13,218 nucleotides of DNA, taken from a virus (lineage: Duplodnaviria; Heunggongvirae; Uroviricota; Caudoviricetes). The notes below the pieces were generated by a model. The model saw nothing but the letters and a program-made list of their open reading frames with translations. It searched no databases and was not told the DNA's origin. Positions within the stretch are counted from its first letter, which is position 1. The number at the start of each line of letters is the position of its first letter. The stretch lies in the IMG/VR virus record IMGVR_UViG_2693429582_000029. The stretch is one strand, 5' to 3'. Below are positions 6,495 through 13,218 of this stretch, piece after piece. Position numbers and translations under genes: made by a program.

Positions 6495-6543
6495 TGGAGA
6501 AACCAACCGACCTTGCAGGGTCGATATGATGAGGAGCAGCAAA

Positions 6544-6906
6544 ATGGCTAGCGAACGCAGTACCAACGTGCAGGAATTTATCGTAGAACTGGACGGCGGC
6601 GTATTTGAAACTAAACTCGGCGCAGTTCTCAGTGAAGTCGCTTCCGGTGTGATGAACACGAAAAACAAAGGTAAAGTCTCGGTCAATCTGGACATCGAAC
6701 CGTTTGATGAGAACCGTGTGAAAATCAAACACAAACTCTCATATGTTCGCCCGACTAACCGCGGGAAAATTTCTGAAGAAGACACCACCGAAACGCCGAT
6801 GTATGTCAATCGCGGTGGTCGCCTGACTATTCTGCAGGAAGACCAGGGACAGTTACTGACTCTTGCCGGTGAACCTGACGGAAAACTCCGTGCAGCAGGT
6901 CGTTAA
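6544..6906 (+). CDS. yfdP: YfdP-like prophage protein (120 aa), first gene of the early-left operon
   Basis: ATG at 6544 with RBS GAGGAG 7 nt upstream. The longer six-frame ORF (from a TTG at 6313) would run through the leader hairpins and is rejected. Symbol assigned by length and position relative to the yfdQ/yfdR-like genes, as in CPS-53, from memory. Confidence 0.65.
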   Translation: MASERSTNVQEFIVELDGGVFETKLGAVLSEVASGVMNTKNKGKVSVNLDIEPFDENRVKIKHKLSYVRPTNRGKISEEDTTETPMYVNRGGRLTILQEDQGQLLTLAGEPDGKLRAAGR

Positions 6907-6971
6907 TATCGTTTTTAATAAACTGATTATTTATCTCATCACTGAATATCTTTATATAGTGAGGACTTATT

Positions 6972-7796
6972 ATGTCTCAGAACTTAGACGCAACCGCAAT
7001 TAATCAAATCCATGCTCTTATTTCTGCTCAGGGTGTTAATGAAATTATCAGTAAGATTGGTGCCGATGCCGTGGCATTGCCTGAGAATTTCCGCATTCAT
7101 GATCTGGAAAAATTTAATTTAAATCGCTTCCGTTTCCGTGGTGCGCTTTCCACTGCCAGTATTGATGATTTTACCCGTTATTCTAAAGATCTTGCAGATG
7201 AAGGCACCCGCTGCTTTATCGATGCCGATAATATGCGAGCCGTCAGTGTGCTTAACCTGGGTACTATTGATGAACCAGGTCACGCAGATAACACCGCCAC
7301 TCTCAAACTGAAAAAGACAGCACCGTTCTCTGCCCTGTTGTCTGTTAACGGCGAGCGTAACTCCCAGAAGTCACTGGCAGAATGGATTGAAGACTGGGCC
7401 GACTACCTTGTGGGCTTTGATGCTAATGGTGACACCATTCAGGCAACAAAAGCGGCTGCGGCAGTCCGTAAAATAACGATTGAAGCAAACCAGACCGCTG
7501 ATTTTGAAGATAATGACTTCAGCGGCAAACGCTCCCTGATGGAATCTGTCGAAGCGAAGACCAAAGACATTATGCCAGTGGCATTTGAATTTAAATGCGT
7601 TCCGTTTGAAGGCCTGAAAGAACGTCCGTTTAAATTACGCCTCAGCATTATCACTGGCGATCGTCCTGTACTGGTTCTGCGCATTATTCAGCTGGAAGCA
7701 GTGCAGGAAGAAATGGCTAACGAATTTCGTGATCTGCTTGTTGAGAAATTCAAAGACAGCAAAGTAGAAACCTTTATTGGTACTTTTACCGCCTGA
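6972..7796 (+). CDS. yfdQ: YfdQ-like prophage protein (DUF2303-type), 274 aa
   Basis: Clean ATG at 6972 with GAGGA 7 nt upstream; uninterrupted 274-codon frame with non-biased composition. The length matches E. coli K-12 YfdQ as I recall it. Confidence 0.75.
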
Positions 7797-7808
7797 TTTC
7801 CTTACTGC

Positions 7809-7830
7809 AAATGCCCCTGCGGGGGCATTT
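7809..7830 (+). terminator. Candidate stem-loop terminator/attenuator between the yfdQ-like and yfdR-like genes
   Basis: AAATGCCCC / GGGGCATTT perfect 9 bp stem with loop TGCG, 13 nt after the yfdQ-like stop. The U-tract is short, so confidence is low. Confidence 0.35.
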
Positions 7831-7923
7831 ATGGAAACATAATTGACTCAATAATCGCCTGATGGCGAGGGTTTTCTTTAACCAAAATTCTGCGCGGTGC
7901 AGCGCATATACGTGGAGAACAAA

Positions 7924-8460
7924 ATGTCATTTATTAAAACTTTTTCCGGGAAGCATTTTTATTATGACAAGATAAATAAAGACGACATCGTGATTAACGA
8001 TATCGCGGTTTCCCTTTCAAATATCTGTCGCTTTGCAGGACATCTTTCACACTTCTACAGTGTCGCCCAGCATGCAGTGCTTTGCAGCCAACTGGTGCCG
8101 CAGGAATTTGCTTTTGAAGCGTTAATGCATGATGCAACAGAAACGTATTGCCAGGACATCCCCGCACCACTGAAACGACTTCTTCCTGACTATAAACGGA
8201 TGGAAGAAAAAATAGACGCCGTAATCCGTGAGAAATACGGGTTACCTCCTGTTATGAGCACGCCAGTGAAATATGCCGATCTCATTATGCTGGCAACCGA
8301 ACGCCGCGATCTCGGACTTGATGATGGCTCTTTCTGGCCTGTATTGGAAGGTATCCCGGCAACAGAGATGTTCAAAGTTATTCCACTGTCTCCAGGTCAT
8401 GCCTACGGGATGTTTATGGAACGTTTTAACGAGTTATCGGAGTTACGCAAATGCGCATGA
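7924..8460 (+). CDS. yfdR: HD-domain phosphohydrolase (YfdR-like 5'-nucleotidase family)
   Basis: 178 aa from the ATG at 7924 (RBS GGAGA); the track ORF starts at a GTG at 7897. Contains H...HD metal-binding motifs (SVAQHAV; LMHDATE) typical of HD-domain hydrolases. Length equals K-12 YfdR. Confidence 0.8.
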   Translation: MSFIKTFSGKHFYYDKINKDDIVINDIAVSLSNICRFAGHLSHFYSVAQHAVLCSQLVPQEFAFEALMHDATETYCQDIPAPLKRLLPDYKRMEEKIDAVIREKYGLPPVMSTPVKYADLIMLATERRDLGLDDGSFWPVLEGIPATEMFKVIPLSPGHAYGMFMERFNELSELRKCA

Positions 8461-8813
8461 ATGTTTTCGAAATGGAAGGGTTTCTTCGCGGGAAATGTGT
8501 ACCGCGAGATCTGAAAGTGAACGAAACAAATGCTGAGTACCTAGTACGTAAATTCGACGCGCTTGAAGCTAAATGTGCGGCACTGGAAAACAAAATAATA
8601 CCAGTGTCAGCTGAATTGCCACCTGCAAATGAAAGTGTTCTGTTATTTGATGCTAACGGAGAAGGCTGGCTGATTGGCTGGCGTTCTCTCTGGTACACCT
8701 GGGGACAAAAGGAAACCGGAGAATGGCAGTGGACATTTCAGGTCGGGGATCTTGAAAACGTCAATATCACTCACTGGGCAGTAATACCAAAGGCACCGGA
8801 GGCAGGGGCATAA
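8451..8813 (+). CDS. yfdS: YfdS-like prophage protein (120 aa)
   Basis: ATG at 8451 overlaps the end of the yfdR-like gene; an alternative ATG at 8457 forms an ATGA overlap. The stop overlaps the next start as TAATG. Confidence 0.65.
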   Translation: MRMNVFEMEGFLRGKCVPRDLKVNETNAEYLVRKFDALEAKCAALENKIIPVSAELPPANESVLLFDANGEGWLIGWRSLWYTWGQKETGEWQWTFQVGDLENVNITHWAVIPKAPEAGA

Positions 8814-9433
8814 TGACCACATTTACCGACAAAGAACTGATTAAAGAAATCAAAGAGCGCATAGGCAGTCTGGATGTGCGAGACAATATTGAGCGCCGTG
8901 CTTATGAAATTGCTTTGGTATCGCTGGAAGCAGAACCGGTGGCATGGCTGCATTCAGACAATGGCTTAGGTATTCCGGCAATAACACGGAGTAAAAACAT
9001 TGCTGACAGTTGGTTATCAAAGGGCTGGTATGTTCAGCCGCTATATATAGCCAAGCCAGTGCCGATGGTGCCAGATGTTCGTCCGTCTTTAAATAATGGC
9101 ATAGTCGGTTTTGATGAAGGCTGGAACGCCTGCCGCGCCGCCATGCTTCATGGTGCCGAACCTGTAAGCCAGACTTACAAGTTGAACGAGCTGTCGGGCA
9201 ACTCTCTGGTAACTCCGGATGGTTGGATAAGCTGTAGTGAGCGAATGCCGGACGATAAACAGTATGTTTGGTGTTGGGGTAAGTCTTACGGCTGGACTGA
9301 GTGCGATACCTTCGAAGGGTATTACGATTGGTCGAGAAACAAATGGTGGGCAGTTACTGACGATGGGGAAGAACCGGCATCGAAAGTAACCCACTGGATG
9401 CCGCTACCGGAGCCACCGCAGGAGGTGAAGTAA
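8813..9433 (+). CDS. DUF551-domain phage protein (YfdT-like)
   Basis: 206 aa; C-terminal WISCSERMPDD...THWMPLPEPP matches the DUF551 signature common in enterobacterial phages. TAATG overlaps at both ends. Confidence 0.7.
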   Translation: MTTFTDKELIKEIKERIGSLDVRDNIERRAYEIALVSLEAEPVAWLHSDNGLGIPAITRSKNIADSWLSKGWYVQPLYIAKPVPMVPDVRPSLNNGIVGFDEGWNACRAAMLHGAEPVSQTYKLNELSGNSLVTPDGWISCSERMPDDKQYVWCWGKSYGWTECDTFEGYYDWSRNKWWAVTDDGEEPASKVTHWMPLPEPPQEVK

Positions 9434-9627
9434 TGAACAACTTAATGACAACTAAACAAGTCGCCGACTTCTGTGGCGTTTCAGTATCGACCGTTCTTCG
9501 CTGGAACAGCGTAAACAGGAGAACTGGCCAGAAATACAGGCCAGACTTTCCAGATCCTGATATTAAATCATGCCCAAATAAATGGGCATCACGCAAGATT
9601 TACAAATTTGCGGGAGTTATTGAGTAA
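9433..9627 (+). CDS. Excisionase-like small HTH DNA-binding protein (Xis/AlpA/TorI class)
   Basis: 64 aa; TTKQVADFCGVSVSTVLRWN is the helix-turn-helix of excisionase-type proteins. GGAGG RBS 7 nt upstream. Last gene of the operon, facing the integrase. Confidence 0.6.
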   Translation: MNNLMTTKQVADFCGVSVSTVLRWNSVNRRTGQKYRPDFPDPDIKSCPNKWASRKIYKFAGVIE

Positions 9628-9734
9628 CGAGCATTAGCTCAGATGAGAGTTGGTACACCTATGGCACAGAGCTAAACCTGATCTGTTATATTCGCTCTGT
9701 GCCGGAAGTATGCCATATTTATTACATACAGTTG

Positions 9735-11867
9735 TCAATCTTTAAGACTAATTGTGATTGCATCTGGAAATCCAATTTGGCTATAGCACATAGTTTCGGT
9801 TATGAATAATTTTCTATCGATAAAATCAAGTACATCTTTTTTCGTGAGCCCCGTTAACATCGTCAATTTGTTAATTACATAATCATACCAATCATGGTGA
9901 AGCATGTTTATATACATGTTAATATCAACTGCATCTTTCCTCCATGAATTATTCGGTATCAAATCTTCAGATAAAAATCCTCTTATTAAATCGCTTGCAT
10001 AGGACATCCTAAGAAAAACAGAAAGAAAAATCCTTACATTAACATGTGTAAAATTTGTAGATAGCGTCGAAGGAAACTCGTAAAACCGGTAGATCAACCG
10101 ACTTACAAACACAGCAGAGTCTATCGCATTTACTGGCAGTAATGTTCCGATGACACTTAATGCACCACTTATAACGAAGCCATTAGCAACAGAGGCATGA
10201 GAACCGCTTAGGGCAGATGTTAAACATGCACTCAGAATTACGATAGGAGGAATTCTTGCTATTTTTCTCAAACTCCAAGTGTCCACTTTATCCTCACCTA
10301 TTATTAACCATCCATGACTCCCATTGCCATCATGGTTTCCATGACAATCCATAACAAGAATATGACCTTGATATTGATTTAGAGCATCAATAAACTCAGC
10401 TTTCGATCTAACATCAATAATCTCGCAATCAAGATCTGGCATCTGTTTTTTAAATATCTCAATTGCGTTCTCTAATATGAACTTTAAGTGATCATCAGGC
10501 TCAAAAGAACGTATAACTAAAACCTTTCTCAACTCAGATGCTTTTACTAAAACGCGCGGAAAAGCAGAGGCGCTCTGTAGAAGAACGTTACCAGGCGTAG
10601 CATTTATTCTTGATATCTCATGACTGAACATTATAGGTATGTTATTAAACCTAATCCAATCCAATGGTACATCACAAACAAAGGACAAATCGCTATAGTT
10701 TTTACTTATATATGTTCTCAACTTGCAACCAAGGGCTCTTCGAATAACAGTATTGAATGCTTTAGATTTAGTGATGAATGCTTCACTATTTATCCCAGAA
10801 GAAGTTGCAAGATCTTCAAGATTTTTCAAATAATTGGAGTAATGATTTATTGCATTTGGCAATCTTATTGCTGGGATTTTTTTATTTATGCTAAATAAAG
10901 TAATCGCAGCTGTTGTTAATCGCATTTCAGCGCGTCTTAGTGAGGTGAGGTAACGGAAAGCAGGACTTTTAAAAAGTTCTTTTCTATCTGAATTTATATC
11001 AAGTCTAATTCCAGAATAGCCAGGATTCCTCAACACTCCATCAATAAGGAATTTTTTCTCAATTGTGGATAAATTTTCCGTTATTAACTCATAAAAGTCA
11101 TTATTTTTATCATATAAAAAAGAGTGCATACCCGGAGCAAAAAGTAAGACTTCCGTTGGAAGTGGTATATCTAATTCCTTTAAACATTCGGTGTATGCAT
11201 CAACGCTATGAAGTATTATTTCTATAAACTCTCTTTTGCTACTACCATCTTTAATTCTTTTTGGTGGAGATAGCATATAGCCAAGTGATTCAATTAACAA
11301 CTCATTGGGTAGTGTTGAATTGTTAAGCGTCGATCTCCAAGGTGATTTATTAAATAAAGCCCCTCTTCGCTTCAACTTCGTTGATATTTTCTTTTCACTG
11401 TGATTTTTTCTTATTTTATCCTCAATGAATTTCAACCGAGAGAAGAGCACCTTATCAAATGAGTATATACTATTAATCTTATTAAGTGGTTGATCAGCGC
11501 GTTTAGAATTGCAACAAATTATAGGTGGTATAGCAAAATGTTTTTTTAAAGCACAAACATACGAAAAATCTTCTTTAGCACAAAAAATTAAGCAAAATGG
11601 CGTTTGATAAATATTTGGTATTTTTTCAAGATTTTCTTTAGATATTAAAAAAATAGGATTTAGCCCGCTTAGAGTAGGCTGAAAGTTATCATTTTCATTG
11701 ACAAAAATCTCACTAATTTCTTTTGGTGTTTTGGCCAATAAAAAAAGAATGTTGGATATCTCTGGGTTGAGGAGGCCAGTATCGAAACCTTGGATTATGG
11801 TTTGTTCCCCAGTAGTAGGCATGATTACAACTTTAAGTATCGCCCCGTGTTCCTGTAACAGTTCCAT
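9735..11867 (-). CDS. Large (~710 aa) protein with a C-terminal caspase-like CHAT protease domain and an uncharacterised ~430 aa N-terminal region; candidate defence/abortive-infection effector
   Basis: Uninterrupted 2.1 kb frame in very AT-rich DNA. First ATG at 11867 with an AGGA RBS; the six-frame ORF extends to a TTG at 11924. Caspase/CHAT catalytic signature: HILVMDCHGNHDGNGSHG (His codons at 10341-10343 and 10314-10316) followed about 30 residues later by PPIVILSACLTSA (Cys codon 10224-10226). Confidence 0.85.
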   Translation of the reverse strand: MELLQEHGAILKVVIMPTTGEQTIIQGFDTGLLNPEISNILFLLAKTPKEISEIFVNENDNFQPTLSGLNPIFLISKENLEKIPNIYQTPFCLIFCAKEDFSYVCALKKHFAIPPIICCNSKRADQPLNKINSIYSFDKVLFSRLKFIEDKIRKNHSEKKISTKLKRRGALFNKSPWRSTLNNSTLPNELLIESLGYMLSPPKRIKDGSSKREFIEIILHSVDAYTECLKELDIPLPTEVLLFAPGMHSFLYDKNNDFYELITENLSTIEKKFLIDGVLRNPGYSGIRLDINSDRKELFKSPAFRYLTSLRRAEMRLTTAAITLFSINKKIPAIRLPNAINHYSNYLKNLEDLATSSGINSEAFITKSKAFNTVIRRALGCKLRTYISKNYSDLSFVCDVPLDWIRFNNIPIMFSHEISRINATPGNVLLQSASAFPRVLVKASELRKVLVIRSFEPDDHLKFILENAIEIFKKQMPDLDCEIIDVRSKAEFIDALNQYQGHILVMDCHGNHDGNGSHGWLIIGEDKVDTWSLRKIARIPPIVILSACLTSALSGSHASVANGFVISGALSVIGTLLPVNAIDSAVFVSRLIYRFYEFPSTLSTNFTHVNVRIFLSVFLRMSYASDLIRGFLSEDLIPNNSWRKDAVDINMYINMLHHDWYDYVINKLTMLTGLTKKDVLDFIDRKLFITETMCYSQIGFPDAITISLKD

Positions 11868-11950
11868 CAAAAATCCTAATAAACAAATAAAAATGTTATA
11901 ATCAAAAACTGCAAGGATTAGCAAGCAATTCTTACAGTTTTAAGAAGGGG

Positions 11951-11976
11951 ATTATACCGCAATATGCATAATTGCG
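11951..11976 (-). promoter_or_regulatory. Candidate regulated promoter for the CHAT gene: perfect -10 TATAAT abutted by a palindrome
   Basis: Minus-strand TATAAT at 11956..11951, ~85 nt upstream of the ATG. Immediately upstream lies CGCAAT-N7-ATTGCG (11958-11976), where a -35 element would be expected. The nearest -35-like TTGCAT (11990..11985) is 28 nt away, too far for a standard sigma70 spacer. Confidence 0.35.
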
Positions 11977-12000
11977 TTCTGCCTATGCAAAATGTCAGTT

Positions 12001-13218
12001 CTAGTCTGAACAAGTACAAGTAACTATCGATTCAACCCTCTCCCACCACGCCTGGTAAGCTTTACGCTGTTCTTCTAAATAATCGCTCTTGTCATAAACC
12101 TGCCATACCCCTGGCAGTTTATGACCGAGCATTATTTCTGCAATATGAGGCGCAGTAAGATCAGAAAAGTTTGTTCGTGCTGTTCGTCTCAAATCATGAA
12201 GAGACCAATGAGGGAATTGATACCCCAAACGCCGCCATGCGTACTGCATTAAATTGTAAGGCAGCGACTGCAATGATGTCCGTCCAACGGGCTCCCTGCT
12301 TCCTTCCTTAGTAAAAAGCATATCGGAACCATTGTTCATAGAGATAACGTACTTTATAAGCTCTTCAACCGGTTCAATAATGGGGCGCTTTAGCGGTTCG
12401 CCTGTTATATCCCCTGTCTTATGTCGTTCTGGCGGTACAGTCCATACCTTATTTATGAAATCAAAATCATCCACCCTAGCAGTAATTAGCTCCGAACTAC
12501 GGCAACCAAAATGCAGTAATAGTTTAATGAAGGCCCGGTATTTGGGAACCATTCTAGAGCCATCGATCGCAGCATAAAGAATTTTAATTTCATCGTGTGT
12601 CAGAAACCGTTTCTTCTGACCTTTACGGATATCCATATCTTTACCCGTGATATCCGACAGCGGGCGAGTTTCAATAAGCTTTCTCTTATACGCCCAGACA
12701 TGGGCCTGCTTTGCGTTAATTAGCAATCGGTCTGCTATTGCTGGAGTCTTAGTGCTAAGAGGCTCCAAGACTTCTAACCAATCATGCAATGTAGCTGCAT
12801 CGTGAGGGATATTCCCGATTTTAGAGAACAGGTGCAGCTCAAACGAGCGGAGTATCTGTTCAGAACCCTTTTTATTTTTTACACAATATGCTTCATACCA
12901 GGCACGGATCACAGACTCTACCGTCATGGCTTCAGTAGCTTTTCGTTTTTCAGCCTGCTTGACCAATCGTGGATTACGGTTTGACTCGAGTTCACCACGG
13001 AGACGGATAACTTCTTCTCTGGCCTCTTTTAATCCAGTTGCCGGGTAAGTTCCGATATCAAGACGCTCACCTTTCCCTGCCCATTGATAACGATATTGGA
13101 ACACTACGCGACCTTTCGGTGATACTCTGACAGACAGACCATCACGATCGGATTTAACCAAAACCTTATCACGTTCCTTTCCAACGACTGAACGCAACCA
13201 CGCATCAGACAGCGCCAT
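12001..13218 (-). CDS. int: P4-type tyrosine site-specific integrase
   Basis: 405 aa, with the ATG exactly at the window's last three bases. N-terminal arm-binding region (MALSDAWLRSVVGKERDKVLVKSDRDGLSVRVSPKGRVVFQYRYQW); C-terminal catalytic motifs HDLRRTARTNF (H-x-x-R) and LGHKLPGVWQVYDKSDY (catalytic Tyr). Confidence 0.9.
   Translation of the reverse strand: MALSDAWLRSVVGKERDKVLVKSDRDGLSVRVSPKGRVVFQYRYQWAGKGERLDIGTYPATGLKEAREEVIRLRGELESNRNPRLVKQAEKRKATEAMTVESVIRAWYEAYCVKNKKGSEQILRSFELHLFSKIGNIPHDAATLHDWLEVLEPLSTKTPAIADRLLINAKQAHVWAYKRKLIETRPLSDITGKDMDIRKGQKKRFLTHDEIKILYAAIDGSRMVPKYRAFIKLLLHFGCRSSELITARVDDFDFINKVWTVPPERHKTGDITGEPLKRPIIEPVEELIKYVISMNNGSDMLFTKEGSREPVGRTSLQSLPYNLMQYAWRRLGYQFPHWSLHDLRRTARTNFSDLTAPHIAEIMLGHKLPGVWQVYDKSDYLEEQRKAYQAWWERVESIVTCTCSD

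Follow-up and report, generated by a model that had tools for sequence, protein, structure and literature searches.

The window analysed here is a stretch of 13,218 nucleotides (nt) from a tailed-phage record (Caudoviricetes, IMG/VR IMGVR_UViG_2693429582_000029). On its minus strand, at 9735..11867, it carries a gene of 710 codons plus stop. Judged by its sequence, this gene is a prophage-borne allele of bovA, which encodes the sole protein of the anti-phage system Borvo. The BovA profile (PADLOC PDLC03831) matches the product read from the ATG with E=5.5e-241 and 800 bits, and covers residues 4-709 of the protein and positions 3-715 of the 720 in the profile. The sole Pfam match is that to CHAT (PF12770) at residues 488-592, with 26.5 bits against a gathering score of 24. 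Its catalytic pair, His509 (in DCHG) and Cys548 (in SAC), is invariant in 31 aligned homologues and is kept in at least 90% of a family alignment of 154 members. The features by which a protein is assigned to Borvo (a full-length profile match, a CHAT domain with a His-Cys dyad and a single gene) are all present. They are shared with the Borvo/BovA of Millman et al. 2022, as are the E. coli origin and the carriage on a mobile element, and no difference of substance was seen.

Borvo, its DNA-polymerase trigger and the gap in its mechanism have all been published already, and the classification is unchanged by the present analysis. The present work settles the start codon, flags an annotation error, parses the protein into domains and finds no detectable relative for the N-terminal module. 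In the literature searched, neither a Borvo structure or mechanism paper was found, nor a domain parse or function for the N-terminus. An earlier note on this DNA had left the N-terminal part of this CHAT protein unassigned. The protein as a whole can now be named as BovA of Borvo, while its N-terminus does indeed lack an assignable domain.

The six-frame open reading frame (ORF) that contains bovA runs from 9735 to 11924 on the minus strand and opens with a TTG at 11924. The first ATG is found at 11867 and is preceded, at a distance of 6 nt, by the Shine-Dalgarno sequence AGGA (11877-11874). Both points agree with the earlier note, which had regarded the choice between the two start codons as ambiguous. 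The ambiguity disappears once relatives are compared, although database annotations do disagree: on the comparative sequence evidence, translation begins at ATG 11867, and the upstream TTG is situated within an untranslated, promoter-like region. At least 90% of the 31 homologues in the alignment retain Met1, and full-length members measure 709-718 residues. The N-terminal motif MEL(L/I)Q (Met1-ELLQ in the window protein) is found in homologues down to 54% identity, and in a distant clade (30-35% identity) the protein likewise starts a few residues before the first beta-strand.

The DNA between the two codons points in the same direction. In five orthologous loci (68-85% protein identity) the upstream frame is closed by a stop codon at -15, -15, -36, -45 and -69 nt. 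Only two short alternative starts occur in the orthologous loci, neither of which resembles the extension of the window gene. When the upstream DNA is aligned with that of the two closest relatives (85% and 83% identical), a 5-nt indel appears between TTG and ATG. Coding sequence would not tolerate such a change, so the 57-nt stretch from 11868 to 11924 is read as a non-coding 5' region. Each of the six aligned loci has a GGA or GGAG that precedes the ATG by 6-9 nt, and the pairing with the 3' end of the 16S rRNA amounts to -4.0 kcal/mol before the ATG, compared to -1.4 before the TTG.

It had been suggested in the earlier note that the 19 extra codons could equally be a signal or membrane anchor. 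Translation from TTG 11924 would then add a 19-residue hydrophobic segment, and the product would open with MLILAVFDYNIF... The frame is indeed open from 11924, and the 19 codons (which read LLILAVFDYNIFICLLGFL) reach a Kyte-Doolittle 19-residue mean of 2.24, which would score as a transmembrane segment if translated. A 729-residue form starting at the TTG is also annotated in GenBank for phage Ayreon (MF807953.1, L028 1444-3633), and the PHROG 34827 profile has 729 positions, with the window protein matching from position 20. However, 32 of the 57 nt are T (56%), and the hydrophobicity of the extension is a by-product of this T-rich spacer composition. The segment further has an Asp in its middle and no basic n-region, no Shine-Dalgarno sequence precedes the TTG, and the BovA profile begins at residues close to the ATG. 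Among the orthologous loci examined, each either lacks the extension or has a stop in its path (-15 to -69), none has a comparable one, and the 5-nt indel puts the stretch out of frame with the closest relatives. The starts of the distant homologues, so close to the first strand, also count against it. A TTG start is therefore very improbable, and the comparison of sequences largely refutes it.

When hydropathy is calculated for both versions of the protein, the hydrophobic segment is confined to the TTG reading of the window allele. In the ATG form no hydrophobic segment is seen at the N-terminus by hydropathy, and the sole maxima fall in the protease core, at about residues 559-588. BovA is read as cytosolic for this reason. 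The ATG form (710 residues) is the one annotated by the Prokaryotic Genome Annotation Pipeline (PGAP; WP_044722728.1, with the same coordinates as given here) and in the RefSeq record of phage cdtI, where orf33 has the same start. The form of 729 residues is apparently a misannotation, and PHROG 34827 has inherited it. For the cloning or modelling of BovA, the 710-residue form is the one to be used.

The TTG is also the first triplet of a promoter-like element on the minus strand (11895..11924). Here, a -35-like TTGCTA (11924-11919) is followed after 18 nt by TATAAC (11900-11895). The two closest relatives retain the hexamers at the same distance, as TTGCTA-18-TATAAA in one (L024) and TTGCAA-18-TATAAA in the other (L019). 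This conservation suggests that TTGCTA-N18-TATAA(C/A) would act as promoter, in which case the TTG would not be transcribed from it. Two observations count against this part of the interpretation. The -10 hexamer lacks the canonical final T, and a perfect TATAAT at 11956-11951, or read-through from int, would place the TTG inside the transcript. A consensus promoter scan did not list TTGCTA-N18-TATAAC, because the scan requires a T at the last -10 position. As the TTG may be transcribed, it is not transcription that excludes a TTG start but the comparative evidence.

The architecture of the 710-residue protein was derived from two AlphaFold2 models. The full-length model (31 family sequences) has a mean predicted local distance difference test score (pLDDT) of 83 and a predicted template modelling score (pTM) of 0.84; for the model of the N-terminal 440 residues (20 sequences) these values are 80 and 0.83, and the two models agree on the layout. 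All parts are given here with their window coordinates on the minus strand. The protein is predicted to open with domain D1 (residues 1-135, 11463..11867), an acidic, flavodoxin-like alpha/beta domain with four beta-alpha units. A linker with a basic helix (residues 138-156) leads to D2 (residues 165-300, 10968..11375), a second flavodoxin-like alpha/beta domain that ends in RNPGYSG (residues 280-286), in which N281, Y284 and S285 are invariant. It is followed by a helical region (residues 301-392, 10692..10967) with an isoelectric point of 10.4 and four helices (302-329, 338-357, 362-379 and 381-390). Next comes a conserved block of short strands and a loop (residues 393-445, 10533..10691; FVCDVPLDW...MFSHEISRINATPGN), which is assigned as a structural part of the CHAT unit. 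The caspase-like catalytic core spans residues 446-612 (10032..10532), with His509 at 10341-10343 and Cys548 at 10224-10226. The C-terminal region (residues 613-710, 9738..10031) is helical and acidic, with two short strands at its end and with W660, Y695, G699 and P701 conserved. An AlphaFold parse, proposed as a check in the earlier note, thus yields two alpha/beta domains, a basic helical region and the CHAT unit. The boundaries of D1 (1-135), D2 (165-300), the helical region (301-392) and the CHAT unit (from about 393) can serve as cut sites for truncation, chimera and binding work.

The extent of the CHAT unit deserves closer attention, as it determines how much of the N-terminus is left without a relative. 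Csx29, separase and the gingipains superpose over about 280-320 residues, whereas a single caspase core comprises about 160-180. In the sequence alignment, Cys548 stands opposite Cys ~627 of the 716-751-residue Csx29, so that at most about 166 aligned residues can be counted from the catalytic His onward. The superposition would hence have to begin no later than residue ~373, at least about 136 residues before His509. From this alignment we infer that the CHAT unit common to Csx29 and separase starts at about residue 373-393. The block 393-445 has a conservation of 2.19 bits, compared to 2.26 for the protease core, which is consistent with this boundary; within it D399, P401, W404, P411, T424, P425 and G426 are kept in at least 90% of the family. 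In ten divergent members the Pfam CHAT match was confined to profile positions ~110-249, with no N-terminal extension. A resemblance of the motif at 393-417 to the beginning of the CHAT profile is hence only a tentative lead. The earlier note had left the N-terminal ~430 residues unassigned. No domain can be assigned there by sequence or fold, yet the orphan part is shorter than was thought, covering only residues ~1-372/392, because the CHAT unit reaches back to about 373-393.

One loop in this area stands out. Residues 412-426 (window 10590-10634, MFSHEISRINATPGN) are located just upstream of the caspase core, and S419, T424, P425 and G426 are among the most conserved residues of the family. 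For this loop, the N-terminal model gives a pLDDT below 50, and in the full-length model the values are about 54-59 and drop below 50 at 421-425. A loop that is conserved and yet modelled with low confidence could be a mobile latch or an active-site loop.

For the remaining N-terminal part, no relative was found by any of the searches. None of 20 family members has a Pfam match in its N-terminal 440 residues. A profile search of the PDB sequences gave only a chance match to Mif2 (E=0.3), and Foldseek against the PDB returned nothing at E<=1e-3. Walker A, GxGxxG and CxxC motifs are absent, and no tetratricopeptide repeat (TPR) is detected by Pfam or fold. The earlier statement that no motif can be placed upstream of the protease thus holds, and a known enzymatic domain, which would have spoken against a sensing role, was found neither by Pfam nor by the PDB profile search nor by Foldseek against the PDB.

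The fold class of D1 and D2 brings up another explanation, in which they would be degenerate pseudo-caspase domains or a scaffold for folding, oligomerisation or substrate docking, while the trigger would be sensed elsewhere or indirectly. Parallels are seen in the pseudo-protease domain of separase and in gingipain subdomain A. D1 and D2 each form a three-layer alpha/beta sandwich, which belongs to a fold class near that of the caspases, and the pTM of 0.84 indicates a compact multi-domain body. Superpositions of separase, Csx29 and the gingipains that extend beyond a single caspase core would also fit. However, the additional superposed residues are explained by residues ~373-445 together with 613-710. 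Moreover, when D1, D2, the helical region and the 393-445 block were compared by hhalign with the caspase core of the family and with each other, the probabilities remained below 2% throughout. These values give no sign of an internal duplication or of degenerate caspase copies in the N-terminus. The explanation as a whole, including the scaffold variant, is considered improbable.

The profile of the N-terminal module matched 562 cluster representatives among 1.84 billion representative proteins. Of the 150 matches listed, nearly all are 700-790 residues long and have the module at positions 1-440, and those that are shorter look like fragments. No fusion of the module to another effector was found among these 150, and the module appears to travel only with the BovA protease.

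Conservation is distributed unevenly over the protein. D1 and D2 are the least conserved parts, with 1.25 bits compared to 2.26 for the protease, and D1 has diverged the most in each pair compared (76% versus 93% identity in the closest relative, for example). Within D1 and D2, P48 alone reaches a family conservation of at least 90%. The family-conserved residues outside the protease form three clusters: the RNPGYSG motif, R311/E314 together with IPAIRLPN (residues 331-338), and the block 393-431. At least 90% of the family retain E314, R335 and P337 of the helical region. This region has a net charge of +11 in the window protein and is net positive in 92% of the 154 family members. On these sequence properties it may bind nucleic acid or contact an acidic exonuclease cleft.

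One of the known CHAT systems close to BovA is Csx29 (the type III-E TPR-CHAT protease of Craspase). The two share the CHAT catalytic unit, with weak sequence similarity near the catalytic Cys, and in both the sensor or regulatory part would lie N-terminal to the protease, as is established for Csx29 and proposed for BovA. The Csx29 model (NCBIfam NF041237) is the only NCBIfam match of BovA, although at 14.7 bits it stays far below the cut-off of 300. In contrast to the TPR repeats of Csx29, the N-terminus of BovA is alpha/beta and helical, shows no TPR repeats by Pfam or fold and has no match to Csx29. The gene neighbourhood differs as well: Csx29 adjoins Cas7-11/gRAMP and Csx30/Csx31, whereas no CRISPR or Cas7-11 genes are annotated in the ~27-kb region around the window bovA, nor are CRISPR genes found near bovA in the relatives with listed genes or annotation. 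Csx29 is activated by RNA-guided target binding, while Borvo is activated by a phage protein (bioRxiv 10.1101/2022.08.27.505566).

Separase, the eukaryotic CD-clan protease, has a long helical, TPR-like N-terminal arm that BovA lacks. No sequence relationship between the two is detectable, the N-terminal module matches no separase domain, and BovA is bacterial and prophage-related. The SAVED-CHAT proteases, which are activated by cyclic oligonucleotides in type III CRISPR and cyclic-oligonucleotide-based anti-phage signalling systems (CBASS), contain a SAVED domain, and none is present in BovA by Pfam or fold. Differing from SAVED-CHAT and from the CHAT anti-sigma factor DdvA, the ATG form of BovA has no transmembrane segment and its gene has no cyclase or sigma-factor neighbours. 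An identity as Csx29 or SAVED-CHAT was rejected, as the defining sensor domains and gene neighbourhoods of both are absent. By analogy, BovA may nevertheless work like other CHAT defence proteases.

Borvo has been shown to defend E. coli by abortive infection (bioRxiv 10.1101/2022.08.27.505566). Expression of the SECphi4 DNA polymerase is toxic only in cells that contain Borvo (bioRxiv 10.1101/2022.08.27.505566). The phages T5, SECphi4 and SECphi18 escape via missense changes in the proofreading cleft of their polymerase (bioRxiv 10.1101/2022.08.27.505566), and these changes include catalytic metal-binding and single-stranded-DNA-binding residues of the exonuclease site (bioRxiv 10.1101/2022.08.27.505566). 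The positions affected are T13, E91 and D176 in SECphi4, R171 in SECphi18 and I63, F223 and T320 in T5. The escape polymerases lack clear sequence homology to each other (bioRxiv 10.1101/2022.08.27.505566). The mechanism of Borvo has been described as poorly understood (PMC11348598).

The observations on the window gene are probably best explained together as bovA being a cargo gene of the prophage, translated from the ATG into a cytosolic protein of 710 residues, in which a CHAT unit is joined to an orphan N-terminal sensor or autoinhibitor. For the N-terminal module itself, such a role is the most reasonable reading, at about an even chance or slightly better, as the module appears confined to the BovA architecture and D1 and D2 are the fastest-diverging parts of the protein. 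In the mechanism that is proposed, the N-terminal module would hold the protease inactive until it recognises an infection signal, which for Borvo requires the phage DNA polymerase with its proofreading cleft. The freed protease would then cleave one or more host targets, whereby the infection is aborted. This control would resemble that exerted by the TPR part in Csx29 and by the SAVED domain in SAVED-CHAT. Two points weigh on the other side. The faster divergence of D1 and D2 could simply reflect a weaker constraint, and the published Borvo phenotype was obtained with the protein of E. coli 403116 (bioRxiv 10.1101/2022.08.27.505566).

A more far-reaching version of this mechanism is proposed only tentatively and is rather doubtful. 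Here, residues ~1-390 would form an undescribed type of sensor. Its direct target would be the proofreading cleft of family-A phage polymerases that are unrelated to each other, or else the state of DNA or nucleotides that this cleft creates, and its response would be to release a separase-like protease. It is also conceivable that the module does not bind the polymerase itself but a small molecule or nucleic acid that results from its exonuclease activity, such as deoxynucleoside monophosphates, a 3' single-stranded end or a replication intermediate. The escape mutations would agree with such a ligand, as they hit metal- and single-stranded-DNA-binding exonuclease residues in polymerases without clear homology, and so would the positive net charge of the helical region across most of the family. 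On the other hand, no nucleotide-binding motif is found, and the single well-conserved residue of D1 and D2 (P48) would be unusual for a conserved ligand pocket. That expression of the polymerase alone suffices for toxicity fits either model. Recognition of such a ligand in place of the polymerase is regarded as quite unlikely.

Borvo is among the few defence systems of which the trigger is known and the sensing mechanism and protease substrate are not. With the present parse, the candidate for sensing is an orphan module rather than a known receptor fold.

As to its surroundings, the window (1-13218) represents the int-proximal early region of a lambdoid prophage and is 96-97% identical to the phages cdtI and Ayreon. 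In both of these temperate phages a 99.3% identical protein is encoded between the integrase and the excisionase. In the window, the prophage integrase (12001..13218, minus strand; tyrosine recombinase WP_001218283.1 by PGAP, orf32 in cdtI) is found upstream of bovA, separated from it by a spacer of 133 nt. On the other side, an excisionase-like gene of 64 residues (9433..9627, plus strand) is convergent with bovA. This ORF is annotated as the excisionase in cdtI (orf34), whereas the PGAP annotation of the E. coli ML775 record omits it. It contains a terminator-like hairpin (minus strand, 9589-9570), which is located about 150 nt past the bovA stop. The window also encodes RusA, a LexA-family protein, a Dam-like methylase, PerC, Rha, YmfL, cro/cI-like repressors, YfdP-YfdS, DUF551 and xis.

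In E. coli O103 ML775 the prophage is integrated beside yjjG, and PGAP annotates the gene with the ATG start as 'CHAT domain-containing protein'. Across bovA the GC content drops to 0.31-0.38, from 0.44-0.50 on either side, which would be expected if the gene is acquired cargo. Carriers make up 32 of 5426 complete E. coli genomes, always with a single chromosomal copy of at least 99% identity. The ORFs within 3.5 kb of bovA in 19 loci (Enterobacterales, Pseudomonas, Herbaspirillum, Acidovorax and others) were all compared with each other. A shared neighbour occurred only among closely related Pseudomonas genomes, so that no partner gene is conserved, in agreement with a one-gene system.

Some alleles are no longer intact. 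A single base is missing from bovA in O121/O121:H19 records and in several related isolates, and the gene is annotated there as a pair of ORFs (260 and 396 residues). The shorter form is represented by E. coli 2014C-4423 (L026 601-2732) and is also seen in a number of database matches (H7/H19, H8-H15/H22-H27). In one O121 genome, the gene is interrupted by IS600. The shortened and interrupted copies indicate that the system is decaying in the O121 lineage.

The enterobacterial orthologues (L019, L020/L021, L022/L023, L024 and L025) are found in different mobile contexts. These include the tail-spike gene of another prophage, a TraC-like conjugation gene together with a HATPase_c_3 protein, and a position near AlpA or YagK/YfjJ island genes. 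The diversity of these contexts indicates that bovA moves as an independent cassette.

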